Source of the DNA: Candidatus Pyrohabitans jungbluthii
GTDB lineage: Archaea > Hydrothermarchaeota > Hydrothermarchaeia > Hydrothermarchaeales > BMS3B
Assembly (NCBI GenBank): GCA_002010065.2
Contig: MTMD02000002.1
Span: forward strand, 64,001-128,000
Direction of reading: 5' to 3'
Length of the DNA stretch: 64,000 nt
Translations under genes and position numbers: made by a program
The notes under the pieces: model-generated
What the model was told of the DNA's origin: nothing
The model's input: the letters and a program-made list of their open reading frames with translations, nothing else
The model's database searches: none
Part shown: positions 5,069 through 60,537 of the stretch, in pieces
How the letters are laid out: every line of letters starts with the position of its first letter
Position numbering within the stretch: position 1 is the first letter of the stretch

Positions 5069-6127
5069 TTACTCTTTCCTCAACTTCCTGGGTACATAGC
5101 TGCAGTATGGCTCCTCTGCAAGGTAGTCGCCTGTCACAGCATACGCACGAGCGCGGCAACCCCCGCAAACTGCGAGGTACTCGCACACTCCGCACTTACC
5201 CTTATAGCGCTTGAAGTCTCTGAGCTCTTTAAAAAGCTCACTGTTCTCCCAGATATCCTTAAAGCTCTTCTCGTATATGTTTCCAGCGCTCTTGGGGAAG
5301 TATGAGCAGGGGTAGACTTCGCCCTTGTGATTTATGAGCGCTATTAGCTGCCCGGCTATGCAGCCCTTTCCTCCGCCCGTGGAGAAGCTCAGGGAGCGCC
5401 GCTTTATGGGCTTGCCCTCCTGCTTCGCGCGCTGGGCGAATATGCGGTAGTACATGGGTGCGCAGGTTGGGCGCACGTACATCTCAGTCTCGCGCTGCTC
5501 CATGTCGTAGTGCCAGTTGAGTATCTTTTCATAGTCCTCCTTGCTTATCAGCTCCTCCATTATCTCCTTTCCTCTGCCTGTGGGCACAATCATGAACATA
5601 TACCACGCGGTGGCGCCGAGCTTCTTGGCAAGCTCGTAAACCTTAGGAATCTCGTCTTGGTTCCTCTTTGTGAAGGAGGAATTGACTATGAAGGGGATGC
5701 CGTGCTTTTTGAAGAGCTTGGCCGCGCGTATCGCGCCCTCAAAAGCTCCGCGCTGGTTGCGGAAGTTGTCATGCACCTCTGCGGTTGAGCCGTCTATGCT
5801 GATGGAGACTATCCTTATCCCGGCATCCTTGATCTTCTCACACACCTCGTCGGTAACGAGAGTTCCATTTGTCGCCATAGCCATTCGCAAGCCGCGCTCA
5901 GTACCGTAACGGGCTATCTCAAAAATATCCTTGCGCAGCAGTGGTTCGCCCCCGCTGAGCACCAGCACAGGCTTGGCATAGCTGGCGATGTCATCTATCA
6001 CCGCCTTAGCCTGCTCTGTGCTCGGGCCCTTCTCAGCCTTTATCGCTGCCTCAGCGCGACAATGCACACAGCGCAGGTTGCACCTCTGCGTAATCTCCCA
6101 GGCTATCCAGCGAGGTTCGAACTTCAT
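5069..6127 (-). CDS. ahbD: Radical SAM/SPASM heme b synthase (AhbD/NirJ2 family)
   Basis: [60 protein letters not shown]. Confidence 0.8.
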
Positions 6128-6235
6128 TGTAATAATCGCAGGAGCTATCAATAAAAATCAAAGCTGAACCAGGGAAGGAGGATACCCAACCCCCAACAGG
6201 TATATACGTAAGAAATGATACGATTTTGAGGAAAA

Positions 6236-17294: not shown

Positions 17295-17945
17295 CTAAAG
17301 CTCACAACTCTCTTTTGTGCAGGTGCCTGTAGCTTTGCCTGTTTCAGCTGGGGAATCGCCAAGAGCCTTTACCAGATCCTCATAGGTCTGGAGCCCGCTG
17401 AGCAGTTTACCATTGATAATAAAAGTGGGAACGGCATAAACTCCATAAGACTCTGCCAGTTTTAGATTCTCTTCGAATCTCTCTCTGGCAGTGTTTTTGA
17501 GGAAAGCATCTATCTCACTCTTGGATATTCCAAGCTCCCTCAGGTAGCCGTAAAGTCTTGCCCTATCGCTTATATCGATCCCCCTAACCCAGTAGTCCCG
17601 GTATACTCTGTCGTTAAACTCTTTGAATACTCCCCTATCCTTTGCAAGCTCCGTAAGAAGAAGGGCAAGATGTGAGTTGCTGAACCTCTCGGGGATGTTT
17701 ATTTCCACACCGAGCTGAAGTGCACGTTTTTTTATCTCACCCACAATAACATCTATATAATCCTCATCAAAACCCATCTCCAGAAGCGTCATGCCTCCTT
17801 CTGGTATTTCCGGATGAATCTCGTATCCTATCCACTCTAGCTGAACGTCATGATTCTCCACCAGCTTGTCCAGCGCCTTTTTGCTCAGATAGCAGAATGG
17901 GCAGGAGTAATCTGAAAAAACGATGACTTTGTTCATGTATTTCAC
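17295..17945 (-). CDS. DsbA/FrnE family dithiol oxidoreductase
   Basis: SDYSCPFCY, GVYAVPTFIIN..GLQ, C-terminal CxxxxC. Confidence 0.88.
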   Translation of the reverse strand: MKYMNKVIVFSDYSCPFCYLSKKALDKLVENHDVQLEWIGYEIHPEIPEGGMTLLEMGFDEDYIDVIVGEIKKRALQLGVEINIPERFSNSHLALLLTELAKDRGVFKEFNDRVYRDYWVRGIDISDRARLYGYLRELGISKSEIDAFLKNTARERFEENLKLAESYGVYAVPTFIINGKLLSGLQTYEDLVKALGDSPAETGKATGTCTKESCEL

Positions 17946-17970
17946 CCGCGGTATGGCATCACCTAACGAG

Positions 17971-18219
17971 CTAACTTTTCTCTCTGATCTTAATTAGATA
18001 GATAAATTTCCCGTCCTCTTCACTCATATCTAAGAGCTCATTTCCAGTATGCTTAACCCACGCTGGAATGTCTTTTCTGGTGCCCAAATCAGTGGCTATG
18101 ACCTTTAGAACCTTCCCTGCTTCCATTTTGGATAATGCCTGTTTGACTCTAAAAATTGGCATGGGGCAAGCCATGCCAGAAACATCCAGCACCTCATCAG
18201 CTTCTATCAAGCCTCTCAC
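17971..18219 (-). CDS. tusA: TusA family sulfur carrier
   Basis: LDVSGMACPMP, VIATD.G...DIPAW..TGNELL. Confidence 0.92.
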   Translation of the reverse strand: MRGLIEADEVLDVSGMACPMPIFRVKQALSKMEAGKVLKVIATDLGTRKDIPAWVKHTGNELLDMSEEDGKFIYLIKIREKS

Positions 18220-18221
18220 CC

Positions 18222-18638
18222 TCAGAACGTAAGGACGACGTCTGCCTTCTGAGCCTTTTCCAGGAGGAACCAGGTTGCTCCGACGATGTCCTCAGCCTCA
18301 GGCACAAGGTTCTCCTTGGTAACGTCAAAAATCTGCGCAGCAAGGCTGCACACGTACATCCTTACCTTCCCTGTAGCCTTCAGCGCCTTGATAATCTCGT
18401 ACACGTCTGTGGGAAGCCCAGCCTCAGCCACCTTAGCCTTTATCATCTCATCGCTGCCTTCATGCTCCTTTGAGACCTTCAGATTCTCTGCACCACCTTT
18501 TGTCAGTACTCTGGCAGCCCAGTTTACGAACAGTATGTCAACCTCCATGTCAGAGGCGGCCCCGAGGTAGGCGAAAGCCAGAGGGGTCAAAATTCTATCG
18601 TATGCATCTTCCCTTACAATTATTGCCAGTCTCTTCAT
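18222..18638 (-). CDS. DsrE/DsrE2-like (peroxiredoxin-family) sulfur relay protein
   Basis: KRLAII, MEVDILF..W, VRMYVCS, IVGATWFLL..ADVVLTF. Confidence 0.8.
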   Translation of the reverse strand: MKRLAIIVREDAYDRILTPLAFAYLGAASDMEVDILFVNWAARVLTKGGAENLKVSKEHEGSDEMIKAKVAEAGLPTDVYEIIKALKATGKVRMYVCSLAAQIFDVTKENLVPEAEDIVGATWFLLEKAQKADVVLTF

Positions 18639-18654
18639 ATCTTTTCCTCCTATC

Positions 18655-18670
18655 GAACGAACGTTCGTTC
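18655..18670. promoter_or_regulatory. Perfect 16-bp palindrome, probable TetR operator
   Basis: GAACGAACGTTCGTTC immediately upstream of the dsrE-like RBS and downstream of the TetR gene. Confidence 0.75.
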
Positions 18671-18707
18671 TATTGTAGAATAATAACCTGTGAAAAACAA
18701 CTTGAAA

Positions 18708-19286
18708 CTACCTTCTCAGCGCCCTCCAGCAGGAATCAAGAGTCTCATCCACATAATTTAAAAGGCTGTCCCGAATAACACCGTCCAGCTTTAGGGTTAT
18801 CAGCCTGATTGGAAGCCCCATTAAAGTTGCAGTTGCCAGCAGGGGGTCCATTTCCCTGATTTCCCCCTTTACAATGGCATCCGATACTATTTCCATGATA
18901 TAGTCAAATGGTTTAGAGGAACAGATAGTGCGGTTGTCCCTCAGGATTTCTCTGTGCTTTACATACAGGGCATACTCCATAATATCTGGGTACTCATCGG
19001 TAAGCCTGTAGAATACTTCAATAATCCTCCTGAATTTCTCTTTAACATCTTTTTCATCGCCGAGTGCCTCTTTCAGGTTTTTCATGAGAAACTGTACTGT
19101 ATCGTTGTAGAGGTACTCCGCAATATCTTCTTTTCCGTCAAAGTAGTGATATATCGCCCCTATGCTTAGCCCAGCCTCCCGCGAGATGTCCCGAATGGAG
19201 GTGTTAAAATACCCCTTTCTTGTGAAAAGTCTCCGGGCAGTTTTAATGATTTTACCTTTTGTTTCTGTGTCCATCTGAGACCTCAT
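18708..19286 (-). CDS. TetR/AcrR family transcriptional regulator
   Basis: IIKTARRLF..KGY.NTSIRDI...AGLSIGAIYHYF.GKE HTH. Confidence 0.93.
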   Translation of the reverse strand: MRSQMDTETKGKIIKTARRLFTRKGYFNTSIRDISREAGLSIGAIYHYFDGKEDIAEYLYNDTVQFLMKNLKEALGDEKDVKEKFRRIIEVFYRLTDEYPDIMEYALYVKHREILRDNRTICSSKPFDYIMEIVSDAIVKGEIREMDPLLATATLMGLPIRLITLKLDGVIRDSLLNYVDETLDSCWRALRR

Positions 19287-19364: not shown

Positions 19365-20264
19365 CTAGTCAATCATCCCGCCGGCACGCATCGCTCGCCG
19401 TGCTTTCTCAGCTATCTCCTCAGGCACGCGAACCTCTGGTGCGAGGTCTTCAAGGCACCACAACACCTTGGCGGCGTCGGTCAGCTTGTGGTTGCTGCAG
19501 CTTGCGCGCTCACTGGGGAAGTAGAATCGCTTTTCAGGAAACTCCCTCTCAAGGCGGTGCTTCATTCCTATCTCAGTGGCGACGATGAACTCCTCGCTGG
19601 GCGAGGCTCTGATGTGCTCCACCATTTGCTGTGTGTCAAGCACGTGGTCCGCGAGCGCAATCACGTCGCCCCTGCACTGAGGATGGACGAGCACCTCTGC
19701 ATTAGCGTGAGCCTCCTTAAGCCTTGAGACCTCACTGGCGAGAATACGCACATGGGGCGGACAGTACCCTTCAGCGATGATTAAATCTTTGCCGCTGGTG
19801 TTGCGGAGATAGCTCCCCACGTACTGGTCGGGCAGGAATATCGCCTTTTCGTTGAGTTCTGAGAGCACGCGAAGCGCTTTGCTGTGGTTGCATATGTAGT
19901 CGCACGCAGCATACTGCTCTGCCCTGGCTTTAATGTAGCCAACAACCTTCGCCTCGGGTGAGCGTTCTTTAATGCCCGCGATCTGCTCCACGCTCACCAT
20001 AGCCACCATGGGGCAGCGCGCCTCAGCGCTGGGAATGAGCACCTTCTTGTCAGGATTTAAAATCGCAATAAGCTCCGCCATGAAATCAATGCCGCACGCC
20101 ACAACCACGCTTGCATTGCTCTTCTGGGCAAAAAGGGCACATTCGAATTTATTCCCCACGAAGTCCGCTAAGTCCTGCACATCACCGGGTTGAAAATTGT
20201 GCGCCACTATTATGGCGTTGTGCTCCTCCTTGAGCTTCTCAATCCTGCGCTCAAGCTTAGCTAT
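19365..20264 (-). CDS. Divergent quinolinate synthase (NadA)-fold Fe-S protein, probable ATA start
   Basis: NAIIVAHNFQ, CGIDFMAE, three cluster Cys (ARCPM, YCPPH, SCSNH), HPQC, ATE.GM; frame extends upstream of the tracked GTG to an ATA overlapping the preceding stop. Confidence 0.8.
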   Translation of the reverse strand: MAKLERRIEKLKEEHNAIIVAHNFQPGDVQDLADFVGNKFECALFAQKSNASVVVACGIDFMAELIAILNPDKKVLIPSAEARCPMVAMVSVEQIAGIKERSPEAKVVGYIKARAEQYAACDYICNHSKALRVLSELNEKAIFLPDQYVGSYLRNTSGKDLIIAEGYCPPHVRILASEVSRLKEAHANAEVLVHPQCRGDVIALADHVLDTQQMVEHIRASPSEEFIVATEIGMKHRLEREFPEKRFYFPSERASCSNHKLTDAAKVLWCLEDLAPEVRVPEEIAEKARRAMRAGGMID

Positions 20265-20634
20265 ACTCCTGCCCCCTGTAGTTGGCGATCGCCTTCTTCA
20301 GAGCGCGCACGCCAACTTCCTTGCAGCACCTGTTTATCTCAGGTAAGCCCCCCGCGGCGCGCTCTATATCGGCTAAGCCAAGCTCAGCCGCCTCCTTCAC
20401 GCTCTTACCCTCTGCCAGGCTTGCCAGTATTTCGCTGCTTGCTATGGCGGCGGCGCAGTTGTACGCCTGGAAGCGCGCCTCCTTTATCACGTCACCCTCA
20501 ACTTTGATGTAAAACTCCACCTCGTCGTCGCAGAGGGGGTGTACTTCTTTGCCCACGCCGCTGGCATCGCTCAGCATGCCCTCATGCCTAGCCTCGCGAA
20601 GTATTCGAGCGACCTCTTCACCCCTCAGAGGCAT
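20257..20634 (-). CDS. Divergent IscU/NifU-like scaffold paralog
   Basis: PLCDD, FQAYNCAAAIASSE, GGLPEINRCC. Confidence 0.85.
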   Translation of the reverse strand: MPLRGEEVARILREARHEGMLSDASGVGKEVHPLCDDEVEFYIKVEGDVIKEARFQAYNCAAAIASSEILASLAEGKSVKEAAELGLADIERAAGGLPEINRCCKEVGVRALKKAIANYRGQEYS

Positions 20635-21025
20635 CTCCCTTCCCCGCTTTTTTCTTCTTGTAGTCCTCGATTGCTGCCTTCAAGCCATCGCTGGCGAGAA
20701 GCGAGCAGTGCATCTTTATCGGCGGGAGCCCGCCAACCGCGTCGGCGACATCCTCTTTGCTTATCTTCGCCGCCTCCTCCAGGGTTTTGCCCTTGGCAAG
20801 CTCCGTCACCATGCTACTCGTGCCTATTGCTGCGGCACAGCCAAAGGTCTCAAACTTTATGTCCTCGATTATCTCCTCGCCCTTTTCGTTCTTCCCGACT
20901 TTAATGTAGATGTACATCACGTCCCCGCACGCGGGGTTTCCCACCTTGCCCACGCCGTCGGGGTTCTCCATCCTCCCCATATTCCTGGGGTTTCTAAAGT
21001 GGTCTATCAAGGTTTTGCTATACAT
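20618..21025 (-). CDS. iscU: Fe-S cluster scaffold IscU/NifU
   Basis: YS...DHFRNPRNMG, GNPACGD, FETFGCAAAI, LPPIKMHC. Confidence 0.95.
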   Translation of the reverse strand: MYSKTLIDHFRNPRNMGRMENPDGVGKVGNPACGDVMYIYIKVGKNEKGEEIIEDIKFETFGCAAAIGTSSMVTELAKGKTLEEAAKISKEDVADAVGGLPPIKMHCSLLASDGLKAAIEDYKKKKAGKGDASEG

Positions 21026-22229
21026 GGCAGTGCTCGCCTCCTTTCCATTCTGTTCCCTCTACGTAATCCTCAAAGCTGTCCTTAAATGGCGATATATCGC
21101 GCAGGCGCTTAACCACGCGGGGCAGGACTTCAAGCAGGCGCTGCACATCTTCGCGGGTGGAAAACCTGCCAAGCGTGACGCGAAGCGAACCATGCGCCTC
21201 GGCGTGGCTCAGCCCTATCGCCGTTAAAACATGGCTCGGCTCAAGCGTTGGCGAGGAGCACGCGCTGCCTGTGCTCGCGCTTATGCCCTCGAAGTCCAGC
21301 TCCAGTATCAACCCCTCGCCCTCTATGAATGCAAAGGCGAAGTTCGCGTTGCCGGGGAGGCGCTGCTTGGGATGCCCGTTTAAGCGGGTGCGCGGTATCT
21401 TCAGCACCTCCTTAATAAGCTCGTCTCGAAGTTTTGTCAGGCGCTCCGTTTCGTCCTTCATCTCTTTCTTCGCTATCTCCGCTGCCTTGCCAAAGCCAAC
21501 TATGCCGGGGACGTTCTCAGTGCCGGAGCGCAGCTTTCTCTCCTGCCCGCCTCCATGAAACAGGGGCTCAAGTCTTGTGCCCCTAGCTACGAAGAGGGCG
21601 CCTATGCCCTTGGGACCATACATCTTGTGTGCACTCATGGCGAGCATGTCCACGCCAAGCTCTTCAACGTCTATCGCCACCTGACCGTTGCTTATGCACG
21701 CGTCGCTGAAGAAGGCAACGCCCTTATCCTGCGCCACCTCCGCAAGCTCCTTTATGGGCTCTATTGTACCTATCTCGTTGTTTGCGTGGTTGATTATGGC
21801 TAAGATGGTATCGCTGTTAATTGCATCCTCCAGCGTCTCGGGCTTAACGAGACCATATTCGTCCACATCTAGGTAAGAAACCTCAAACCCCTGCTTCTCG
21901 AGCCAACGGCACGCCTCAAGCACAGCAAAGTGCTCTATCTTGGAAACAACTATATGCTTTCCCTTGTTCTTATTCTTCAGCGCAAACCCCTTTATGGCAA
22001 GGTTGCACGCCTCTGTGCCGCCAGAGGTGAAGATTATCTCCTCGGGCGAGGCGTTTATCAGCTCAGCAACCTTAGCTCGAGCCTCCTCTACGGCTGCCTT
22101 TGCCTCCTGCCCAAATGAGTAAAAGCTGGTTGGGTTGCCGTACTTCTCAGTGAAGTAGGGCAGCATCGCCTCAACCACGCGTTCGTCCACCGGCGTAGTC
22201 GAGGCGTAGTCGAGGTACACTCTCCTCAT
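21018..22229 (-). CDS. iscS: Cysteine desulfurase IscS/NifS
   Basis: YLDYASTTP, FTSGGTE, SAHKMYGPKG (PLP Lys), STGSACSS (catalytic Cys). Confidence 0.95.
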   Translation of the reverse strand: MRRVYLDYASTTPVDERVVEAMLPYFTEKYGNPTSFYSFGQEAKAAVEEARAKVAELINASPEEIIFTSGGTEACNLAIKGFALKNKNKGKHIVVSKIEHFAVLEACRWLEKQGFEVSYLDVDEYGLVKPETLEDAINSDTILAIINHANNEIGTIEPIKELAEVAQDKGVAFFSDACISNGQVAIDVEELGVDMLAMSAHKMYGPKGIGALFVARGTRLEPLFHGGGQERKLRSGTENVPGIVGFGKAAEIAKKEMKDETERLTKLRDELIKEVLKIPRTRLNGHPKQRLPGNANFAFAFIEGEGLILELDFEGISASTGSACSSPTLEPSHVLTAIGLSHAEAHGSLRVTLGRFSTREDVQRLLEVLPRVVKRLRDISPFKDSFEDYVEGTEWKGGEHCHV

Positions 22230-22230
22230 C

Positions 22231-22461
22231 TTAAACTTTCCTCCTTATGTACGCTTTTATTATCCCGCCTTCTCGCGCATAGCCAAGATACTCGTTCCCG
22301 GTTACACGGCACCAGGCAGGGAGGTCTTCAATTATATCTTCGTCGTCTGCAACTATCTCCAGAACTTCCCCGACGGCAAGCTTTTGCAAAGCTTCGCCAG
22401 CCTTTGCGAGAGGCACAGGGCAGTGCATACCCACGCAGTCCACGCTGAGCTTTGCCTTCAT
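22231..22461 (-). CDS. tusA: TusA family sulfur carrier (second copy)
   Basis: DCVGMHCPVP, IVADD...DLPAWC..TGNE. Confidence 0.9.
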   Translation of the reverse strand: MKAKLSVDCVGMHCPVPLAKAGEALQKLAVGEVLEIVADDEDIIEDLPAWCRVTGNEYLGYAREGGIIKAYIRRKV

Positions 22462-23594
22462 CTCTCCCGCAACCTGTTTATAACCTCCCCCGCCTCCTGC
22501 GCAACCCGCGCTACGTCTGCCTCGCTCGTGGGGATGCCGAAGGAGAAGAGCATGGCACCGCGGATTAGCTCCTGGGATAAGCCCATCGCCGCAAGCACGT
22601 GGCTCGCCTTCGCTGCTCGAGCCATGCAGGGCGAACCCGAGGTTATGTATATTCCTCGTGAGCTGAGCTCAGCCACGACAGCCTCGCCCTCTACCCCAGG
22701 GACGCTAATGTGCACATACATGGGGTTAACTTCGCTCGGGTGCCCGTTTATCTTGGCTTCGGGCACCTCACGGCGCAGCGCCTCTATAAACTTGCTCCTC
22801 AGCGTGCGCAGCTTCTCTAGGCGCTGCGACATCTCCCTCTCAGCCAGCTCTGCTGCCTTTCCCATGCCCACTATTCCTGCGACGTTTTCGGTGCCCGCTC
22901 TGTAACCGCGCTCTTGTATGCCGCCCTCTATCTGGGGCAGAAGCCTTACTCCACGAGCTAAATAAAGCGCTCCCACACCCTTAGGGCCATAGAAGCGGTG
23001 CGCCGAAAGGGTGTAGATATCTACGCCCAGCTCTTCCACCTTAGCGGGCACTATGCCAGCGGCGCTGACGCCGTCGCAGTGAAATGTTATCCCCCGCTCC
23101 TCGGCGATTTCGGCAATCTCCTTAATCGGCTGGAGGGTGCCCACCTCGTGGTTGGCGTGCTGCACAGAGATTAAAATCGTGTCGTCGCGAATCGCCTTCT
23201 CAAGCTCCTCCACGTTAACGCGGCCGTGCTCGTCAACGCCCACGCGGGTAACCTGCACCCCCTCGCGGGCTAAGCTCTGGAGCGGATGCATTATGGAGTA
23301 GTGCTCCACCGCAGAGATAACCACATGCCTCCCCCTCGCCTTATTAGCCTGAATCACGCCTTTAATCGCTAAGTTGTTTGCCTCCGCCCCGCCGGAGGTG
23401 AAGACTATCTCCTCGCTCCTCGCCCCCAAAAGCTGGGCTACCTTCTCCCTTGCCCCCTCCACAGCGCGCCTCGCTTTGAGCGCAAAGTCGTGCAGATTGG
23501 AGGGGTTCGCGTAGAGCTCGTCGAAGTACGGAAGCATCTCCTGCTTTACCTCTTGCAGCACAGGAGTAGAAGAGGCGTAGTCTGCGTAAATCAT
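22458..23594 (-). CDS. IscS/NifS-like paralog with PLP-binding Lys replaced by Arg
   Basis: YADYASSTP, FTSGGAE, SAHRFYGPKG (CGC codon), TSGSPC; ATG at 23594 after GAGGAG. Confidence 0.88.
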   Translation of the reverse strand: MIYADYASSTPVLQEVKQEMLPYFDELYANPSNLHDFALKARRAVEGAREKVAQLLGARSEEIVFTSGGAEANNLAIKGVIQANKARGRHVVISAVEHYSIMHPLQSLAREGVQVTRVGVDEHGRVNVEELEKAIRDDTILISVQHANHEVGTLQPIKEIAEIAEERGITFHCDGVSAAGIVPAKVEELGVDIYTLSAHRFYGPKGVGALYLARGVRLLPQIEGGIQERGYRAGTENVAGIVGMGKAAELAEREMSQRLEKLRTLRSKFIEALRREVPEAKINGHPSEVNPMYVHISVPGVEGEAVVAELSSRGIYITSGSPCMARAAKASHVLAAMGLSQELIRGAMLFSFGIPTSEADVARVAQEAGEVINRLRER

Positions 23595-23677
23595 TCTCCT
23601 CGCCTGAATAACGCTGCTCCTTCCCATCGCAAAATTGTTTGGAAAGGTTTAAGCAGCTTTAGTCAACATTCTGGTGC

Positions 23678-32410: not shown

Positions 32411-32959
32411 TTGGATAAAGAGATACGTATGACCAGGCAGGTGTTCGAGGCGCTTGTGTCAGAGACGCGCATCGCCATATTAAAAAAGCTGGACCGCCGC
32501 GCCATGACGCTCAGCGAACTTGCGAGGGAGCTTGGCTTAGCCAAGTCGGCGGTACATGAGCACCTGGCGAAGCTTGCCGACGCTGGCTTAGTGGAAAAGC
32601 GCGACGCTGGAAGAAAGTGGGTGTACTACCACCTCACACCCAAAGCGAGGGGGATACTCCATCCGGAGGAGAGGCACCGTATTCTCGTGCTTCTCAGCTC
32701 CGCGCTGCTCGCGCTGCTCGGCGGGGTTTTCACGGGTTTAAAATACCTTCGCGTAGCGGGAGAGGTTGCAGAAAGCAGAGTGACGTTTGAAGCCGCGCCA
32801 AAAGCGATGGAAACACCAGTCGCTGAGGCAGTGAGGACGACCAAGCCCTACCTAGCTCTGAGCATAGCGCTTCTCGCAGCTTCTCTGCTTTTATTCTTCC
32901 TTGCCTACCGCGCGTGGAAGCGGGGCAAAAACTATTATAACCTTTCAGGAGAATCCTGA
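32411..32959 (+). CDS. Membrane-anchored ArsR-type winged-helix regulator
   Basis: FEALVSETRIAILKKL..TLSELA..HL.KL..AGLV plus two TM helices. Confidence 0.82.
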   Translation: MDKEIRMTRQVFEALVSETRIAILKKLDRRAMTLSELARELGLAKSAVHEHLAKLADAGLVEKRDAGRKWVYYHLTPKARGILHPEERHRILVLLSSALLALLGGVFTGLKYLRVAGEVAESRVTFEAAPKAMETPVAEAVRTTKPYLALSIALLAASLLLFFLAYRAWKRGKNYYNLSGES

Positions 32960-32963
32960 ATGC

Positions 32964-33680
32964 ATGCATGCGATTGAGCTCCGCGACGTGAAGAAGCGCT
33001 TCGGCGCACTGCAGGTGCTTCGTGGTGTCACTCTCAGCATAGAGAAGGGCGAAGCCTTCGCCTTGCTTGGTCCCAACGGTGCTGGAAAGACCACGCTTAT
33101 AAGAATAGTGGCAACTTTGCTGAGGCAGGATGAGGGTGAGGTGCGCGTCGCTGGCTACGACATTCGTGAGGAAGCGCGGGAGGTGAGGCGTAGAATAGGT
33201 GTGGTTTCCCACAACCCTTTTCTCTATGAGGAGCTAACAGCTAGGGAGAATCTGGAGTTCTATGCCCGCGCCTACGGGGTAGCACAGAGCCGTGTGGATG
33301 AAATGCTGGAGAGGGTTAACCTGGCTGAGCGCGAAGACGACCTGGTGGCGACGTTCTCGCGGGGAATGAAGCAGCGCCTGAGCATAGCCCGTGCCTTACT
33401 TCACTCGCCTGAGGTGCTCCTTTTAGACGAGCCCACCACAGGCTTGGACTTAAAAGGCAGACAGGACTTCTATACCCTGCTTGAAGAGCTTCTTGGCGAG
33501 GGAGCTACTCTGCTCATGACCACCCACCACATGGACGAGGCTGAGAGGCTCTGCTCCCGCGGAGCGGTGCTTCACTCTGGCAGGGTAGTGGCACAGGGTG
33601 CGCTGGATGAACTCAAGGAAAGTGTGGAAAGCCTGGAGGAGGCGTACCTGCGCATCACGGGTGAGGGAAATGGGGCTTAA
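32964..33680 (+). CDS. ccmA: Heme ABC exporter ATPase CcmA
   Basis: GPNGAGKT, FSRGMKQRL, LLLDEP; heads ccmB/C. Confidence 0.85.
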   Translation: MHAIELRDVKKRFGALQVLRGVTLSIEKGEAFALLGPNGAGKTTLIRIVATLLRQDEGEVRVAGYDIREEAREVRRRIGVVSHNPFLYEELTARENLEFYARAYGVAQSRVDEMLERVNLAEREDDLVATFSRGMKQRLSIARALLHSPEVLLLDEPTTGLDLKGRQDFYTLLEELLGEGATLLMTTHHMDEAERLCSRGAVLHSGRVVAQGALDELKESVESLEEAYLRITGEGNGA

Positions 33681-34347
33681 AGCTGTGTTCAACCTGGCGA
33701 GCAAGGATATACGGGCAGAGCTCAGGACAAAGCACACCATAAACTTCATGCTCCTCTTTTCAGGCTTGGCGGTAATCTTCTTCTCCCGCATAGCTGGCAA
33801 CTACGTGGCTGCGGCACCTGAGATGGGCGCAGGCTTGCTATGGCTGGTTTTCCTCTTCACCGGCATGCTGGGCCTGGGCAGGGCTTTCGTCAAGGAGAAG
33901 GAGCTGGGCACTTTCGACGGGCTGAAGCTCACGCCCATGAGCAGCGAGGAGATTCTCGCGGGCAAGGCGATATACAACCTCGCGCTGATGCTGGGGATAC
34001 AGAGCATAATCTTCCCCCTATTTATCATCTTCTTCGACTTTCCCATCCAGGGAAGCGTTGCCTTGGCGTTTGGTGTGCTCACCCTGGGCAACCTGAGCTT
34101 CGTCATCGTTAGCTCGGCGCTCTCAACGCTGGTGCTCAACGCCAGAGCGCGAGAGCTTCTCCTTCCGGTGATTCTCCTACCTGTACTGTTCCCGGTGATC
34201 GTAACCTCGGTCTCTGCACTGAACCGCGTGCTCGTCGGTGGTGAAGGATTTTTAAATATTCTTGGAGAGATTAAAATTATTTTAGCTTATGCTGTGGTGA
34301 TGAGTGTAATAGCTGCGCTAACCTTCGATTTCGCCTTAGAGGAATAG
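33670..34347 (+). CDS. ccmB: Heme exporter permease CcmB
   Basis: KDIRAELR, F.KEKE.GT.DGL, RELLLPVILLP. Confidence 0.9.
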   Translation: MGLKAVFNLASKDIRAELRTKHTINFMLLFSGLAVIFFSRIAGNYVAAAPEMGAGLLWLVFLFTGMLGLGRAFVKEKELGTFDGLKLTPMSSEEILAGKAIYNLALMLGIQSIIFPLFIIFFDFPIQGSVALAFGVLTLGNLSFVIVSSALSTLVLNARARELLLPVILLPVLFPVIVTSVSALNRVLVGGEGFLNILGEIKIILAYAVVMSVIAALTFDFALEE

Positions 34348-34349
34348 AT

Positions 34350-35006
34350 ATGAGGAAGATTTATTTCAGCTTGGCAATCGCCTGGGTGCTGTTCATCTAC
34401 GGCTCCTACAATGCACTGCTGGTTTTCCCGCCTATATCCTCGCCTGCCAACCCGCCCATGGAGGAGCTCTATCGCAATGTTTTCTTCCACGTACCAATAA
34501 ACGCCAGCGCCTTTCTTGGCTTCACCATAACCCTTGGGGCGAGTATCCTCTATCTGCGAACGCGCAAGCTCAGCTACGACTTGGTTGCCAGCAAAGCTGC
34601 GAAGATTGCGGTGCTCTTCACCACCTTCACCCTGCTTACCGGCATGGTGTGGGCAAAGCCAGCGTGGGGGACCTACTGGAACTGGGACCCCCGGGAGACG
34701 ACGGCTCTAATAATGTGGTTCGTGTACCTGGGCTACTTTGCACTCCGCGAGGCTATGCCAGCTGGAGAGCCAAGAGCAAGGGCAAGCGCAGTGCTGGGCA
34801 TCTTCGGCTACGCCTCGGGTATATTCACCCTGCTATCAACGCGGATATTCCCCTCGCTTCACCCCCCAACGCTGGGGCTGGAGCTGGAGCCAAAGATGGG
34901 CATGACGCTTGGCTTAATGATAACAGCCGCTATAATAATATTCCTCAACCTCGTTTATCTGGAAATAAGGCTGGAAAGGCTAAAAGAAAAAGTTACTAGG
35001 GGGTAG
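34350..35006 (+). CDS. ccmC: Cytochrome c biogenesis protein CcmC
   Basis: FFHVP, WAKPAWGTYWNWDPRET (WWD domain), SLHP. Confidence 0.93.
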   Translation: MRKIYFSLAIAWVLFIYGSYNALLVFPPISSPANPPMEELYRNVFFHVPINASAFLGFTITLGASILYLRTRKLSYDLVASKAAKIAVLFTTFTLLTGMVWAKPAWGTYWNWDPRETTALIMWFVYLGYFALREAMPAGEPRARASAVLGIFGYASGIFTLLSTRIFPSLHPPTLGLELEPKMGMTLGLMITAAIIIFLNLVYLEIRLERLKEKVTRG

Positions 35007-35009
35007 ATT

Positions 35010-35138
35010 ATGGAGAACTATCAGAGCATATTCTTCGTTGCAACCTCGCTGTGGGCGGCGCTGGTGGTTTACCTCGCGTACCTTCACAGGCGAATTGGAG
35101 ATTTGGAAAAAAGAATAAATAGGTTAAAATCGAGGTAA
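35010..35138 (+). CDS. ccmD: CcmD-like 42-aa membrane protein, absent from the ORF track
   Basis: MENYQSIFFVATSLWAALVVYLAYLHRRIGDLEKRINRLKSR: single TM plus basic tail, located between ccmC and ccmE. Confidence 0.75.
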   Translation: MENYQSIFFVATSLWAALVVYLAYLHRRIGDLEKRINRLKSR

Positions 35139-35144
35139 GAAGGT

Positions 35145-35573
35145 ATGGATAAGAAGACCGCAAAGAATCTCAAGTACCTTGTGGGTGTTGCGGTAGTTCT
35201 GGTTTTTGTTGGAATAGCCTTCAGCACGACTTCGAGCGAGAGCTTTGTCAACCCCTACAAGAGTGTGAGCGAGGTTGTTAATAACGCCCAGAGCTACCAG
35301 GGCAAGCAGGTCCAGGTTCAGGGTTATGTGGTTGAAGGCACAGTAAGCTGGGTGCCCAAGAATCTGAACTTCACCCTCACCGACGGCAAGGCGAGCATAA
35401 AGGTGGCCTACTATGGTGTTATACCCGCAACCTTCCCGCTGGATAAGGAGTTTGATCCCAACTCGCAGATAGACGTCGTTGCCATAGGCACACTCCGCGG
35501 GGATACACTCATAGCAAATAAGCTGCTTGTAAAGTGTCCCTCAAAGTATGAGGCAAAGGTAAGTGCAGAGTGA
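35145..35573 (+). CDS. ccmE: Heme chaperone CcmE (CxxxY variant)
   Basis: N-terminal TM, V.G.V..G, F.LTD, KCPSKY. Confidence 0.92.
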   Translation: MDKKTAKNLKYLVGVAVVLVFVGIAFSTTSSESFVNPYKSVSEVVNNAQSYQGKQVQVQGYVVEGTVSWVPKNLNFTLTDGKASIKVAYYGVIPATFPLDKEFDPNSQIDVVAIGTLRGDTLIANKLLVKCPSKYEAKVSAE

Positions 35574-36520
35574 AGCTCATGAGGTGGCTTCTTGTATTTT
35601 TGGTTGTTGCATTAGCGCTGAGCGCAGGCTGCGTAGGCGAGAAGCAGCCGCAGAGCACAGCGCCAAGCCCCTTCCAGCCAGAGGTTGCACCTCAGCAGTT
35701 CAGCTACATCCCTCTAAGCCAGGTTCCTCGAGCCTCGCCGCCACCGGAGTTTGAACCTGTGTTTGTGGAAAACCTCTCTGGCCTAATCGCCCTGCCTCAG
35801 GCGGCGATAACCATGCCCAACGACGTATCTAACTTCGCCCCAGACGTTGCGAACCGCATCCTTGACAAGATTCAGAATAAATTCGGAGCGGTGTATATAG
35901 AGGGGGAGGAGACCAGCGTGGTGGTGAGTTTTGAGGCTTACCTGTTCCCAGACCCTAGCTATGCGAGGCAGGCGCTTGAGGTTTACAAAACGAACTGGAA
36001 CAAGCTCAGGTTCAACGCCTCTGGTAAGGAGATGTGGATATGGGAAGGTTATCTCGAACAGGTAACCCCGCCTGGCTGGGCGGTGAAGGGTTCGCACATC
36101 TTCTGGGACACCACCTTTAACGAGGCGTCACTTAGCGGAGGCGACGCAATAGTCGCGAATATTGCAGACGACCTGTACTGCTACCACGGCGAAGCTGCGC
36201 TTGGCAACTACTTTGTTATGGTGGATGTGCACCTGCCTAAAGATCGAGTGGTGGAGGAGGGACAGGAGATATTCAGGGAGTACCTTGAGAAGGTGGCGGT
36301 TAATATATCCGCCGCTGAGGAACCTGTGGTTGAGGAGCCTCCGGCTACGGTTAATGCATCCCCCGGCGTAGAGGACAGGATAGCGCAGCTGGAAGCCAAA
36401 AAAGCTGAGATAACCCAAGCATATCTGGAAAATAAAATAAGCCTGGAGCTTTATAACTACACACTTCAAAAGATAGAAGAAGAGCTTAGGAGAATAAGAA
36501 ACAGGAGTGCGTCGCCATGA
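35570..36520 (+). CDS. Uncharacterized lipoprotein inside the ccm operon
   Basis: LALSAGC lipobox; overlaps ccmE stop and ccmF start; C-terminal coiled/SHOCT-like helix. Confidence 0.75.
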   Translation: MKLMRWLLVFLVVALALSAGCVGEKQPQSTAPSPFQPEVAPQQFSYIPLSQVPRASPPPEFEPVFVENLSGLIALPQAAITMPNDVSNFAPDVANRILDKIQNKFGAVYIEGEETSVVVSFEAYLFPDPSYARQALEVYKTNWNKLRFNASGKEMWIWEGYLEQVTPPGWAVKGSHIFWDTTFNEASLSGGDAIVANIADDLYCYHGEAALGNYFVMVDVHLPKDRVVEEGQEIFREYLEKVAVNISAAEEPVVEEPPATVNASPGVEDRIAQLEAKKAEITQAYLENKISLELYNYTLQKIEEELRRIRNRSASP

Positions 36521-38823
36521 GCTTTTCCTGGAATGTTGGCAATTTCATGCTTCTCATAGCTTTCGTTGCAAGCGCGGTAGTGCTGATAGCGGTAACCCTT
36601 CAGGAGCGCGGTTATCGCGTCCCCTTCGCCTCGAGGCTTAAAATTTTTCCCTGGATAACCATGGGGATGCTCGCAGCAGCTACGCTTTACCTCACCTACC
36701 TCTTTTTGAAGTCTGACTTCACGTACATGTACGTGTGGAGCTATAGCTCTAGAGCATTGCCATGGTACTACAAGGCTTCTGCGGTGTGGGCAGGGCAGGA
36801 GGGCACCTTCCTGCTGTGGGCGCTTATTATCTATGCCTCGGCGCTCTGGGCGAGTGAGAGGCTGGGCTTCGAGGACTACCTTTCAAGGAGGGTCCACCTA
36901 GTAACTCACCTGATTGGGCTATTCTTCCTGACAATGACTCTGCTTGTCTCGCCCTTCCGCAAGATATACGACCTCTATCCTGACCTGCCTAAAGATTTTA
37001 TTCCTCCTGATGGTAATGGATTGAACCCACTGCTCCAGGACCCGTGGATGGCTGCCCACCCCCCGGTTATCTTCATCGCCTACGGCGCTGTTACCATACC
37101 CTTTGCCGCTGCCCTTGCCCATCTCTGGCGCAGGGATGAGCGCTGGCTCAGCATCTCCAAACCCTGGGCTAGGCTCTCTTGGCTCTTCCTTACCCTCGGC
37201 ATAGCACTGGGCGGCTTCTGGAGCTACAAGGTTCTGGGCTGGGGTGGCTTTTGGGCCTGGGACCCTGTAGAGACTTCCTCCCTTATACCCTGGTTTACGG
37301 TCACCGCTCTGCTTCATGCAACTGTGCAGAACTTGAGGAAGCGCGAATTTCCGCTCCTCACCCCGCTGCTGGCGGTTTTGTCCTTCTTCCTCGTGGCCTA
37401 TGCTACCTTCATAACGCGCTCAGGCTTGTGGGAATCTGTGCATGCCTTTGGGGAAACCACAACGGGACCCTACCTGGCTCTTCTTCTCGTGAACATCCCG
37501 ATAATTCCCGCGATACTCGTGGCTGACTACCTGATAAGGAAGAAGCGGGAGGTCAGCGCTGAGGCAAAGGCGCTCTCTGTAGCCTTTCTCCTCGCTCAGG
37601 GCATAATGGTGGTTTATAAAGCTGTGACCCAAGGCAGCCAGCTCCCGAGTTTTGAGGAGGTACTTGTAATTTTTGGTTTGACCGGTGCTCTCTTCCCCCT
37701 CCTTAGGAGGCGCTTCTCAGAAGATGGAGAAAAGATTGAGGAGACCCCTACCTCGGAGAGTGTGCAGCTCTTCACTCGCACAAACCTCTTTTACCTCGCT
37801 ATTATCTCACTGCTCATTCTTGGCTTTGTATCCTTCTGGGGACTGAGCTACCCCTTTTTGATGCAGGCGCTCAAGGATGTGAAGATTAAGGTAGAGATAG
37901 ATTTCTTTAACACCTGGAGCTATCCCTTTACCATCCTCCTTCTCGTCACCATTGCGCTGTGCATGGGCTATGGCTTAATGCGTAAGCGCAGCCTTCTCCT
38001 CGGCACAGTTGCGATTCTCGCAATGGGTGCGATCTCTGCCTTAAAGGGCGTGACTGGTAAGCCCATGGTGGACTTCATTCTTCCTGTGCTGGGCTATGCC
38101 TTTGCAATATCTGTGTGGCGCACCACACAGCTCGCCACAAGCAGAGCTAAGCCCATGCCAAAAGCCAAGCTGGTGGGCTTCTATCTCATTCATGCAGGCG
38201 TTGCCATGATAATCTTTGGGGCGATTTTCAGCACAAGCTTCAGCTCACAGCGCGATGTGGTGTTCCAATTCATACCCAACCAGGGTATAGTGAGCGAGCG
38301 CAAGGATGTGGGCGCAGGCTACGCGGTTGAGGTTGCAGGGATAAACGTGTATGAGAACTACGAAGGATACTTAACCAGCGAGGTCTTGGTAAAGGTTTAC
38401 AAGAACGGGCGTTACATCGGCGAAGGTGCGGCGAGTACAATAAACAACCTGAAATTCGGAAGGGTTACGAAGGTGTACATCAACCGCAATCTAGATGCTG
38501 ACGTCTACGTCATATTTCAGGGCATAGGCGGACATTCAGAGGGGAAAATAGAAATCCCGCTTACGGTGAAGATTGAGCCCCTTGTGAACATCCTCTGGCT
38601 GGGGATAGCGCTTATTTCAATAGGCATACTCCCAGGCATGATTATCGACGGCTTCTCAGTACCCTGGGCAAGGCGGGAGGAAGAGGAGGAAGAAGAGGAA
38701 GATGAAGAGGAGGAGAGGAAGCGCCTTATAGCGGAGATAAAGAAGATAAAACCAGACTGGCAGGATAAGGGCTACACCGTGGAGCAGCTCCGAGATATTC
38801 TGGCGCTGCTCAGGGAGGAGTAG
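36517..38823 (+). CDS. ccmF: Cytochrome c synthase CcmF
   Basis: WAGQEG, GLNPLLQ..HPP, WGGFWAWDPVETSSL, TRSG..SVHAF. Confidence 0.95.
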   Translation: MSFSWNVGNFMLLIAFVASAVVLIAVTLQERGYRVPFASRLKIFPWITMGMLAAATLYLTYLFLKSDFTYMYVWSYSSRALPWYYKASAVWAGQEGTFLLWALIIYASALWASERLGFEDYLSRRVHLVTHLIGLFFLTMTLLVSPFRKIYDLYPDLPKDFIPPDGNGLNPLLQDPWMAAHPPVIFIAYGAVTIPFAAALAHLWRRDERWLSISKPWARLSWLFLTLGIALGGFWSYKVLGWGGFWAWDPVETSSLIPWFTVTALLHATVQNLRKREFPLLTPLLAVLSFFLVAYATFITRSGLWESVHAFGETTTGPYLALLLVNIPIIPAILVADYLIRKKREVSAEAKALSVAFLLAQGIMVVYKAVTQGSQLPSFEEVLVIFGLTGALFPLLRRRFSEDGEKIEETPTSESVQLFTRTNLFYLAIISLLILGFVSFWGLSYPFLMQALKDVKIKVEIDFFNTWSYPFTILLLVTIALCMGYGLMRKRSLLLGTVAILAMGAISALKGVTGKPMVDFILPVLGYAFAISVWRTTQLATSRAKPMPKAKLVGFYLIHAGVAMIIFGAIFSTSFSSQRDVVFQFIPNQGIVSERKDVGAGYAVEVAGINVYENYEGYLTSEVLVKVYKNGRYIGEGAASTINNLKFGRVTKVYINRNLDADVYVIFQGIGGHSEGKIEIPLTVKIEPLVNILWLGIALISIGILPGMIIDGFSVPWARREEEEEEEEDEEEERKRLIAEIKKIKPDWQDKGYTVEQLRDILALLREE

Positions 38824-43992: not shown

Positions 43993-44817
43993 TCACGCAA
44001 TTGTCCTGTTCTTTCTCCTCTGCACAGCGAAGTACACCGCTATGAAGGCGTAGACCATGTGGAACAGGTATGTGAATGGGAACACTGCAAAGATTGTCAA
44101 ACCAAGCGCTGCGTGGTAGTACACTATTCCCGGCACCAGCTCCAGTCTCGCAAGGATCTCTGTCCAAATAATGGAGAAGACCAGCAGGGTAACGAAGAGA
44201 TGCTCCCAGGAGAAGTGTCCGGGCGTGCGTATGCCTCGTGCTGCTGGGTCAAGGTCGTCCATCACCGCGCCGCTCTTCTTGCGAAGGATGGTGATGAGCA
44301 GGTTGGTGTTGCCATAGAGACCGAAGAGTACTGCTACCCAGGTAACGGCGATGAAGATGCCCGCGAGCCTTCCGAAGAGGTAGGGCGCCTGCAGGTGCTC
44401 TGCGTTGCCGAAGACTATCGCAAGTAAATTAGCAGGCGAGTAGTTGTAAGACTCTGGTATGCCAAGAGCCACGTCAGGCACTGGAGAGCCGCTGAGTATC
44501 CTCACCGCTAAGATGAGCGCAGACAGAGCGTAGCCCGAGAGGATGGTGATTATCGCCACGTGGTAGAACATGTAGCCCCTTGCCCACGTGCGGTTCGCTT
44601 TGAGGTAGAAGTGGGTTATTGGTCCAAAGAGTACCTTCTTTATCGCCTCAAAGGTAGGCATGGGCTCTGGTGCATCTAAGGCTGTGGGTGTTCTCCCACG
44701 GGGCTTGCGGTTGGTTATCGCCACCCTCACGAAGCGCCCAAGCTTGAGCGCCGTGCCCAGGAAAAACAGGGTAAAGGCGATGTAGGCGTAGACGTTGAGA
44801 AATCCTTCGATGCTCAT
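43993..44817 (-). CDS. NarI/DsrM/HmeC-like b-type cytochrome membrane subunit
   Basis: About 5 TM helices, FYH in helix II, YYH..FPFTYLFH in helix V; coupled to a CCG Fe-S gene. Confidence 0.78.
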   Translation of the reverse strand: MSIEGFLNVYAYIAFTLFFLGTALKLGRFVRVAITNRKPRGRTPTALDAPEPMPTFEAIKKVLFGPITHFYLKANRTWARGYMFYHVAIITILSGYALSALILAVRILSGSPVPDVALGIPESYNYSPANLLAIVFGNAEHLQAPYLFGRLAGIFIAVTWVAVLFGLYGNTNLLITILRKKSGAVMDDLDPAARGIRTPGHFSWEHLFVTLLVFSIIWTEILARLELVPGIVYYHAALGLTIFAVFPFTYLFHMVYAFIAVYFAVQRRKNRTIA

Positions 44818-46349
44818 CTCGCCTTAACCTCCTGCTTGAACTTCTTCTCAATCATCTGCTTGAGCTCCTGCATCTTCTCAAACGCATGCGGGTTATCGCG
44901 GAAGTAGCGCTGCACAATTTCATCGCCTTCCAGCCACTCCATGAGCTTCGGGAAGTCTGGGTTCTGCATCATCTGCGCCATTATGCCAGAGATGCTGTGC
45001 TTCATGAAGAACTCCTCGTCTCTGCCTTTGAGCTCAGCTGGCATTCGCATTCGATCTAGCTCGCCGCGCTTCTCAAGTGCCTTAACCATAGCCTCGTACA
45101 CCACCTCGAACATCATCAGCGACATGCGCTTGTTCTCTGGCGCCAAGCCATAGACCTTGCAGGTGTCCTCGATGCTGAGCATGCACACAGCGCAGGGCGT
45201 GGTCACAAGTTCAGCGCCTGTGTTCTTTATCTGCTCCGCCTTTATCTTCGAAACCTTCCTGCGAAGCTCAGTGTTCTCGGGCAGGCGCATCGGTCCAGAG
45301 CCAGCGTTGCAGCAGTAGTTGTACTCTCTGTTGGGCGTCATCTCCACGAAATTCTCTGCGACGCTGCGCAGAAGCTCGCGCTCCATCTCGCCCATGCCAG
45401 CTAGGCGAGTGACGTAGCACGGGTCGTGCATTGTTATCTTCTGTTTAATCTTCTCAACCGGAAGCTTGCCAGACTTTATAAGCTCAAGCATCAGCGAGTC
45501 CACGCTTACAATCGGGAACTTGAAGGGTCTGCCCAGTGTTTCAGTCGCCTCGACGTAAAGCGTGCGCACGTCGCAGCCGCACTCCACGACGAGCACCTTC
45601 TGCACCCCGAGGCGCTCCGCCTCAGCCTCCCACTCAAGGAGCATCTGCTTGCTCAGCTCGTGGTGCACCACGATGTGGTCTATCTCTGTACCCGTGTCAA
45701 TAACTCTTGGCGATACTGTGTAGCTCACTCCGGCGGCGTTCAGAATCTTGGGCAGCTTTATGCCGTAGTCAGGTATCTTTGTGTTGCCTGCAGCTGGGCA
45801 CACGAAGAGGTACTCCGCGCCCTTAACTTCGACAGGAAGCTCTGTGCCGTCGGTGTACAGGAATAGGCCCACTCGCCCGAAGACCTGCTCTCTTGTTAAG
45901 CCAAAGGAGTGACGCAGGTTGCGGGTGTTCTCCACTATGGACTTAATCGTGGGGTTCTCCTCGCTCAAGCCAGCGTCGCTGTAGGCTGCTCTGGCTAAGC
46001 GAACTATTCGCCTAGTGCTCAGCCCCTGAGGACACGCGAGGGTGCAGCGCCCGCAGGCAGTGCACTTCCAGAAGTACTCCATGTTCTCTCTCAGGTCCTT
46101 CACTGTAGGCGTTTCCATTAAACCGAGGGCACCCTTTATCTTGCCCTCCAGCGTCATGTAGCGCTTGTAGATCTTTCGTATAAAGTCGGTCTTGTAGGTG
46201 GGATGCAGCTTTTCATCGCCAGTGGTGAGGTACCAGGCGCAGGCTTCGCCGCAGTTCTTGCAGCCTATGCATGCTTCTAGGTTCACTATATCCTCTGCTG
46301 TGAGGTTCCTCTTTAGTGAGTCCACAAAGAGCTGCATTTCGCGCTCCAT
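44814..46349 (-). CDS. DsrK/HmeD/HdrD-like CCG-domain Fe-S oxidoreductase
   Basis: CIGCKNCGEAC, CTACGRCTLACP, ECG, HDPC..YCCNAG..PCAVC; GGAGGTG leader. Confidence 0.85.
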   Translation of the reverse strand: MEREMQLFVDSLKRNLTAEDIVNLEACIGCKNCGEACAWYLTTGDEKLHPTYKTDFIRKIYKRYMTLEGKIKGALGLMETPTVKDLRENMEYFWKCTACGRCTLACPQGLSTRRIVRLARAAYSDAGLSEENPTIKSIVENTRNLRHSFGLTREQVFGRVGLFLYTDGTELPVEVKGAEYLFVCPAAGNTKIPDYGIKLPKILNAAGVSYTVSPRVIDTGTEIDHIVVHHELSKQMLLEWEAEAERLGVQKVLVVECGCDVRTLYVEATETLGRPFKFPIVSVDSLMLELIKSGKLPVEKIKQKITMHDPCYVTRLAGMGEMERELLRSVAENFVEMTPNREYNYCCNAGSGPMRLPENTELRRKVSKIKAEQIKNTGAELVTTPCAVCMLSIEDTCKVYGLAPENKRMSLMMFEVVYEAMVKALEKRGELDRMRMPAELKGRDEEFFMKHSISGIMAQMMQNPDFPKLMEWLEGDEIVQRYFRDNPHAFEKMQELKQMIEKKFKQEVKAR

Positions 46350-46510
46350 ATAGCACCTCCATCTTTTAATTTTTTTGTACATTACTTAAGGTAGTATTTA
46401 ACATTTATAAACATTTATATGTGTTTTATATATATAGCGACTATGTTTCAAAAATTGATACATTCATCGAAACTCACATATCATGGACATTCATTTTAAA
46501 AACATGGTCA

Positions 46511-54818: not shown

Positions 54819-54833
54819 GCAGGAAGGCGCCAA

Positions 54834-54874
54834 TGGTACGGAAGGGGTGATAGGGGCGGGGAAGGCGCCCCTAT
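54834..54874 (-). repeat. GC-rich hairpin repeat, copy 2
   Basis: Minus strand ATAGGGGCG-ccttccc-CGCCCCTAT-caccccttccgtacca directly after the larC stop. Confidence 0.75.
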
Positions 54875-59554: not shown

Positions 59555-59558
59555 AGAG

Positions 59559-60536: not shown

Positions 60537-60537
60537 G

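Follow-up and report, generated by a model that had tools for sequence, protein, structure and literature searches.

A NadA-like protein with an exchanged active site, encoded in an archaeal isc operon, is probably not a quinolinate synthase

We analyzed a stretch of 64,000 nucleotides (the window) of the archaeon Candidatus Pyrohabitans jungbluthii, which corresponds to C2:64001-128000 in a 1.99-Mb genome that is 99.95% complete. The gene nadA*, located on the minus strand at 19365..20264, encodes a 299-residue paralog of quinolinate synthase NadA (product P0001, counted from an ATA codon at 20264), as indicated by Pfam and NCBIfam matches, by alignment and by an AlphaFold2 model. The NadA* subfamily has kept the cluster site of NadA and exchanged its whole catalytic set, and in this genome its gene lies in the only operon in which IscU-type genes were found. 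To judge from its residues, NadA* is very unlikely to make quinolinate, and the database name quinolinate synthase is probably wrong for it. We give about an even chance to the idea that NadA* is a neofunctionalized [4Fe-4S] protein, which would be a component or a dedicated client of the IscS-IscU machinery and would bind an anion in a cationic pocket.

Residues 7-293 of P0001 match the Pfam family NadA (PF02445; E 1.4e-91, 307 bits). The protein passes the NCBIfam equivalog model for quinolinate synthase, NF006878 (321.8 bits vs a cut-off of 294), and narrowly misses TIGR00550 (262.1 vs 262.9). The AlphaFold2 model, built with a 101-row alignment (A2), has a mean pLDDT of 97.9. Foldseek aligned it with solved NadA structures (5ktp, 4p3x, 6f48 and others) at TM 0.92-0.95, with a root mean square deviation of 1.3-1.7 Å and 36-41% identity, values reached on the enzymes of Pyrococcus horikoshii and Thermotoga maritima; a P. 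furiosus NadA has been solved as well. No close match was obtained in the IspH/Dph2 fold class, IspH chains reaching only TM 0.30-0.32 (E 2e-3 to 8e-3). NadA* thus resembles quinolinate synthase NadA (EC 2.5.1.72) in its pseudo-threefold three-domain fold, in its length, in having one cluster cysteine per domain (C84, C168 and C256) and in the same histidines (H22, H171 and H194). A search of the ESM Atlas with NadA* returned only generic NadA clusters, and NCBI names its closest relative, from Candidatus Pyrohabitans in the phylum Hydrothermarchaeota, quinolinate synthase.

An earlier note on this DNA had read the gene as that of a NadA-fold protein with a rewired active site. Residue alignment to the solved Pyrococcus NadA and an alignment of 246 family members confirmed that the three cluster cysteines and the His of the HN, xxH and HP motifs are kept, as it had claimed; the cysteine positions are invariant in 101 of the 101 rows of alignment A2. 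Both alignments also reproduce every motif change that it had listed, namely, HNY to HNF, GDS to GNK, YVN to YIK, CTS to CNH, HPEC to HPQC, xST to LDT and CxxMK to CSNHK. The altered sites are occupied in NadA* by F24, N38-K39, K112, N126-H127, Q196, D210 and H259, the last in place of a Met three residues past the third cluster Cys. In Thermotoga numbering, which we derived from the offsets of the Pyrococcus alignment (Glu195 is Glu198 in P. horikoshii), Tyr21 has become Phe, Asp35-Ser36 Asn-Lys, Asn109 Lys, Thr-Ser124 Asn-His, Glu195 Gln and Ser209 Asp. The positions of Tyr21, Asp35-Ser36, Asn109, Ser124, Glu195 and Ser209 are those that we take to be the substrate-binding and proton-relay sites. 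NadA variants with Tyr replaced by Phe or Glu by Gln lose activity. Judging by the PDB titles, mechanistic work on solved NadA employed Y21F, S124A and E198Q forms. The loss of acids and gain of Lys and His on which the note had based its idea of a more anionic ligand or of a carrier or sensor role is real and conserved, Asp and Glu being lost and two Lys and one His gained. Further canonical invariants have gone without a fixed replacement in the NadA* clade (Asp38, Lys118, Ser127, Asn129 and Ser210); Lys118, Thr65 and Asn129 (query numbering) are invariant in quinolinate synthases and lost in NadA*.

The alignment comprised 246 NadA-family sequences of 240-345 residues, out of 269 fetched. 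The Tyr, Asp-Ser, Asn and Glu residues occur together in 203 of them, which we call canonical. The combination GxK/YIK/CPPH/HPQC/CxxH[KR] is found in only 12 of the 246, the query and its nearest relatives P0002-P0012, and K39, K112, P170, Q196 and H259 are invariant in all 12. These residues are absent or below 2% at the same positions among the 203 canonical sequences; four of the tested positions define the canonical set, so that their 100% conservation there is by construction. The ratio of nonsynonymous to synonymous changes (dN/dS) was 0.10-0.16 for nadA* against the sister-species ortholog, whereas canonical nadA gave 0.03-0.04 in these genome pairs, such that nadA* evolves about four times faster by this measure. 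Between genomes G000 and G010, amino acid identity is 80% for NadA* and 96% for canonical NadA, and in more distant genome pairs the values are 53-58% vs 78-83%. By these comparisons, purifying selection on NadA* is clear, although the protein changes faster than the housekeeping enzyme does. Since the substitutions are fixed across the clade and dN/dS is low, pseudogene decay, the outcome that the note had set against its own reading, with scattered changes unique to one strain, is excluded, and the rewiring of the pocket is systematic rather than random.

A maximum-likelihood tree joins the NadA* clade with other noncanonical NadA-like proteins (P0007, P0009, P0019, P0122, P0130, P0132 and P0169; SH-aLRT 99). 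This noncanonical clade branches from within bacterial-type NadA and is remote from the canonical NadA of the genome. The nadA* gene did not, therefore, arise by recent duplication of the host's own nadA. The subfamily is rare, as a search of 1.84 billion cluster representatives returned only two other clusters with more than 50% identity to NadA*. We found the clade only in one Hydrothermarchaeota family (f1) and in metagenome contigs. Among the 38 genomes of the phylum that were examined, including this one, 9 of the 11 genomes of f1 carry the NadA* type; in the tenth the contig stops inside iscU*, the gene preceding nadA*, and the eleventh shows neither iscU* nor nadA*.

The canonical pathway is encoded elsewhere in the genome. 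At C2:486458-487324 lies a second NadA gene, whose score (380 bits) exceeds that of nadA* and whose product carries all of the canonical motifs (HNY, GDS, YIN, CTS, HPEC, CST and CRTMK). The genes nadC and nadX, the latter for aspartate dehydrogenase, lie less than 3 kb from it (C2:486-491 kb), about 400 kb from nadA*. The window holds no nadB, nadX or nadC, in agreement with the note, which had seen none near nadA* and had proposed a search for a second, canonical copy elsewhere in the genome. Quinolinate synthase genes are linked to nadB, nadX or nadC, whereas nadA* lies in an isc operon with the canonical copy in the same genome. Canonical nadA was found in seven of the nine f1 genomes with nadA*; it was not found in G001, which is 98% complete and in which NadA* is split over two contigs, or in G004, which is 62% complete.

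The genomic context of nadA*, which the earlier note had not seen, adds to its reading of a three-cysteine NadA-fold protein with an altered pocket. Six closely spaced minus-strand genes form the series iscS*-tusA-iscS-iscU-iscU*-nadA*, with nadA* at its end; they overlap by 4, 8, 17 and 8 nt and are otherwise separated by a single 1-nt gap. The first gene, iscS* (22458..23627), codes for a NifS/IscS paralog identified by profile match and alignment, in which the Lys that binds pyridoxal phosphate (PLP) is Arg (SAHR) and the loop Cys is kept. It is followed by a gene for a tusA-family sulfur carrier with the CPxP Cys (22231..22461, by profile match), by iscS/nifS, for a cysteine desulfurase in which both the PLP Lys (SAHK) and the catalytic Cys (GSAC) are present (21018..22229; TIGR03402, 539 bits, above the cut-off), and by iscU, for a canonical-looking IscU/NifU_N scaffold (20618..21025; 155 bits). 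The divergent NifU_N/IscU paralog encoded by iscU* (20257..20634; 90 bits) keeps three Cys and the Asp, and has a Cys (N[RK]CCK) where the His ligand would be. That Cys is present in 14 of 14 rows, giving four Cys and an Asp. The PLP Lys of IscS* is missing in all eight copies (Arg in seven, His in one) with the loop Cys retained, and is present in 15 of 15 copies of the second IscS. Because its PLP-binding Lys is replaced by Arg or His, IscS* is probably not a desulfurase. As read from its genes, the operon is a normal IscS-IscU pair with three altered paralogs, IscS*, IscU* and NadA*.

This arrangement is conserved. The genes iscS and iscU are found directly upstream of nadA* in the window and in 13 of 13 related loci with upstream DNA (L008, L047, L058, L010, L011, L012, L013, L032, L059, L060, L061, L066 and L067, of which L066 and L067 repeat L013 and L012). 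The divergent iscU* is present in 12 of the 13, and in each of these loci nadA* closes the operon and overlaps the gene before it. IscU* and NadA* share the same phyletic set of nine genomes, and their identities to the copies of the window fall together (80/80, 63/54, 52/51 and 50/51%), while IscU stays at 84-95%. When a complex of NadA* (alignment A1) and IscU* (alignment A3) was predicted, the score was 0.01 (mark 0.32), which weighs neither for nor against their association. No fusion of IscU* with NadA* occurred among 120 listed matches of 164-524 residues, and no NadA*-type fusion longer than 524 residues was scored, which is weak evidence. In G013, G017 and G018, IscU pairs also lie in tandem without NadA*.

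Only two IscU-type genes were found in the genome, both in the nadA* operon, and the SufB/D core (PF01458) was not found in it. No other scaffold genes of a known Fe-S system were found in this genome. SufB/D was likewise not found in 37 of the 38 Hydrothermarchaeota genomes, while 14 of 14 control genomes were positive, and IscS-IscU seems to be the only system on which the phylum depends. We considered the loss of SUF/SMS as an explanation for NadA* and rejected it: SufB/D is missing phylum-wide and not just from the family with NadA*, and its loss therefore does not account for the restricted distribution of NadA*.

If NadA* is indeed tied to IscS-IscU, its role might be as follows. The genes of the operon overlap or abut, and NadA* would be made together with IscU* by coupled reinitiation. 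IscS, with its PLP Lys and Cys intact, would mobilize sulfur and IscU would assemble clusters, as their homology suggests. A [4Fe-4S] cluster would be put onto C84, C168 and C256 of NadA*, in parallel with the reported action of NifS on NadA in Bacillus; a NifS-NadA-like fusion in Armatimonadota, described below, points the same way. With the dehydration Tyr and Glu gone, and with Lys, Lys and His in place of Asp-Ser, Asn and Met, the pocket that faces the open iron would be strongly cationic. In it, a small anion may bind instead of dihydroxyacetone phosphate and iminoaspartate; a phosphorylated or carboxylated metabolite is one candidate, and sulfur species such as hydrosulfide, persulfide or thiosulfate are others. 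NadA* would then pass on or transform what it has bound, be it the cluster or the ligand.

Known systems offer partial parallels. Minimal ISC (MIS) systems of archaea include a catalytically inactive IscS, as in Archaeoglobus fulgidus. The nadA* operon likewise has an IscS-IscU core without HscAB, Fdx or IscA, and one IscS without the PLP lysine. In Bacillus subtilis, NifS is outlined as a dedicated sulfur donor that builds the cluster directly on NadA (PMC13066941), and plant SufE3 is presented as a SufE-NadA fusion whose SufE domain is required for synthase activity (PMC5890173). As outlined there, a NadA-fold protein is tied genetically or physically to cluster-building sulfur machinery in both cases, as with NadA*. 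Those NadA proteins are presented as working quinolinate synthases, whereas NadA* has lost the synthase residues, and its partner genes are the only IscS-IscU set found in the genome. The titles and abstracts that we searched describe neither a NadA-fold member of an MIS system nor an altered NadA paralog in an isc operon.

Two proteins of Armatimonadota, P0237 and P0274 (717-719 residues, 84% identical), consist of an intact cysteine desulfurase fused to a NadA-like domain. Its motifs are HNA, GGI, CAK, HCPPH, HPHC, GGG and CATMK, without the Tyr, Asp-Ser, Asn and Glu. Like NadA*, it has a Lys at the position of Asn109 and a CPPH motif. It differs in being fused rather than operonic, in having His and not Gln at the Glu position and Met and not His after the third Cys, and in its very long branch. 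The free tree puts this branch away from NadA*; a tree that unites the fusions with NadA* and the odd clade had a log-likelihood higher by 26.5 and was not rejected (p-AU 0.898), and long-branch effects are possible. Among other fusions, P0123 joins FdhD to a canonical NadA domain, and P0144 joins an Rrf2 regulator to a NadA domain that has Thr for the Cys after HPE and is otherwise canonical.

Outside f1, a divergent NadA*-like gene lies directly after iscS-iscU in G034, a genome of another family (L099, G034:C47). Its motifs are HYF, GSK, YIK, YCPPR, SPQC and CHNHK, with two of the three tunnel His lost, and its neighbors code for a ferredoxin, a CobW-type GTPase, two DtxR-type repressors, FeoA and FeoB. 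Neither canonical nadA nor nadX was found in G034 (88% complete), and nadC is present. Genome G024, also of a family other than f1, carries a second noncanonical type (L100, G024:C70) with the motifs HSF, GGT, YIK, WTS, YCPPH, HPEC and CQNMK, which resembles P0019.

Several points weigh against a tie of NadA* to the IscS-IscU machinery. We infer cluster binding by NadA* itself from its sequence, and the roles of the canonical residues are those we presume them to have. The NadA cluster lies buried where a tunnel ends, a location that by analogy would fit an enzyme better than a carrier, and a pocket so strictly conserved would also suit an enzyme specific for a small molecule. The position in the operon fits equally well with a labile client enzyme that needs private maturation. 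No Fe-S genes were found beside the P0019-type copy of G024 on its 4.8-kb contig, where cupredoxin/COX2-like genes adjoin it. Genomes G001 and G034 carry nadA* or a like gene, and canonical nadA was not found in them at 98% and 88% completeness, respectively. Finally, NadA* is rare, being limited to one family and G034 among the 38 genomes, and the rest of the phylum manages with IscS-IscU alone.

The main alternative, possible though somewhat unlikely, is that NadA* is instead a new small-molecule enzyme unrelated to Fe-S biogenesis, with its adjacency to isc serving the maturation of a labile cluster. Its substrate could be, for example, a phosphorylated compound or a C3/C4 acid of more anionic character. 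Such an enzyme would explain why the pocket replacements K39, K112, Q196 and H259 are invariant and specific, why the tunnel residues H22, H171 and H194 are retained and why the fold is essentially unchanged, and dedicated desulfurase-NadA pairs are known, as outlined in PMC13066941 and PMC5890173. It is harder to reconcile with the loci themselves, in none of which is another metabolic gene conserved with nadA*. Since the genome's only IscU-type scaffold genes were found in it, the operon is not a private extra copy, and the G034 homolog keeps the link to iscS-iscU even though it has lost two of the three tunnel His.

The idea of a cluster- and anion-binding protein allied with IscS-IscU can be taken further. 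NadA* might be a new part of a minimal archaeal Isc system, a former client recruited, with IscU* and IscS*, as a module for [4Fe-4S] assembly or hand-over or as a feeder of an inorganic sulfur anion in organisms without SUF/SMS, and the Armatimonadota fusion would be the same invention in bacteria. We put this forward tentatively and regard it as rather doubtful.

A pseudoenzyme that senses ligand or cluster occupancy and tunes the Isc machinery, alone or with the downstream TetR, is improbable. NadA* has lost the catalytic Tyr and Glu, IscS* and IscU* are likewise without key catalytic or ligand residues, and a tetR gene follows nadA* in the window and in four related loci; tetR is nevertheless absent after nadA* in L008, L058, L012 and L013, and NadA* has no DNA-binding or signaling domain. 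It is hardly credible that NadA* is still a quinolinate synthase, i.e., a second isozyme with unusual residues, in spite of its NF006878 score above the equivalog cut-off, its NadA name in public records and the failure to find canonical nadA in G001 and G034 where nadX or nadC is present, because it has replaced all of the Tyr, Asp-Ser, Asn, Ser and Glu residues that the 203 canonical sequences share without exception (at four positions by definition), the PDB titles describe Tyr-to-Phe and Glu-to-Gln variants of solved NadA as made to trap complexes and intermediates, canonical nadA co-occurs in seven of the nine genomes, dN/dS is about four times that of canonical nadA, and no link to nadB, nadX or nadC was found.

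NadA has been regarded as a family with one function, and pipelines call each of its members quinolinate synthase; NadA* is a clear case of probable misannotation whichever role it has. Should it take part in Fe-S or sulfur trafficking, the minimal Isc systems of anaerobic archaea, which are poorly understood, would gain a new component, and NadA* would be an example of a client enzyme turned biogenesis factor. If NadA* were a new enzyme, it would extend the chemistry of [4Fe-4S] clusters with an open iron.

The start of nadA* is unusual. Its minus-strand frame is open from 20297 to the stop codon at 19365-19367, and the start taken by the earlier note is an ATA codon (20262..20264). There is no ATG, GTG or TTG in this frame from the upstream TGA (20300-20298) down to a GTG at 20207, where the automatic list of open reading frames begins the gene. 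From the ATA, nadA* overlaps the end of iscU* by 8 nt (20257-20264). The ATA is found in the window, L008, L058, L012, L013 and L059, where L010, L011 and L060 carry ATG at the same position. It stands two bases ahead of the iscU* stop in the window, L008, L012, L013 and L059; in L058, iscU* continues two codons longer past it. The 19 codons between the ATA and the first GTG show synonymous differences, with a dN/dS of 0.2-0.3 based on few sites, and code for an N-terminal helix that is conserved in the model and has no canonical start upstream of it. The synonymous differences and the conserved helix indicate that this stretch is translated, and the same letters occur at the start of nadA* in the independent assemblies X5 and X7. 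Of 23 public runs, none was listed as an RNA data set that contains this sequence. A noncanonical or reinitiation start at ATA 20264 is probable and is the simplest reading. Gene callers shorten the relatives at the GTG (P0003 and P0005) or over-extend them upstream (P0002 and P0004). We also considered a +1 frameshift that would join iscU* to nadA* at the conserved ACTACAGGGGG and rejected the site as a special signal; the same 'TTGG' reading occurs upstream of iscU*, where iscU ends in DYR, so that ACTACAGGGGG results from the C-terminal motif of IscU, though frameshifting as such might still occur.

Downstream of nadA* lies a variable module of four minus-strand genes, tetR (18708-19286), a dsrE-like gene (18222-18638), tusA (17971-18219) and a dsbA-like gene (17295-17945). 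The module (17295..19286) follows nadA* in the window, L010, L011, L060 and L061. It is missing from L008, L058, L012 and L013 and is thus not a constant part of the operon. It is 83-91% identical to that of another genus (L060 and L061), where the adjacent iscS and nadA* are 72-73% and 51% identical, respectively, and the closest relatives do not have it behind nadA*, all of which suggests that the module was recently exchanged.

The window also contains larB and larC, for the synthesis of the nickel-pincer cofactor, at 54024-56095. A role of NadA* in making this cofactor, which involves a pyridine dicarboxylate and sulfur insertion, was considered and rejected: two larE genes that score above the cut-off are present outside the window (C2:52082-52852 and C15:27623-28360), and nickel-pincer synthesis therefore has no gap for NadA* to fill. 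Further genes of the window, with joint coordinates 32901-38820, 44817-46382, 59529-61812 and 5072-6151, encode cytochrome c maturation proteins (CcmA and CcmC-like, CcmF/NrfE-like), a DsrK-like protein, DsrO and DsrP, and a radical-SAM (S-adenosylmethionine) enzyme whose best match is the heme b synthase AhbD, below the model cut-off. Together they hint at sulfur respiration and a siroheme-dependent route to heme.

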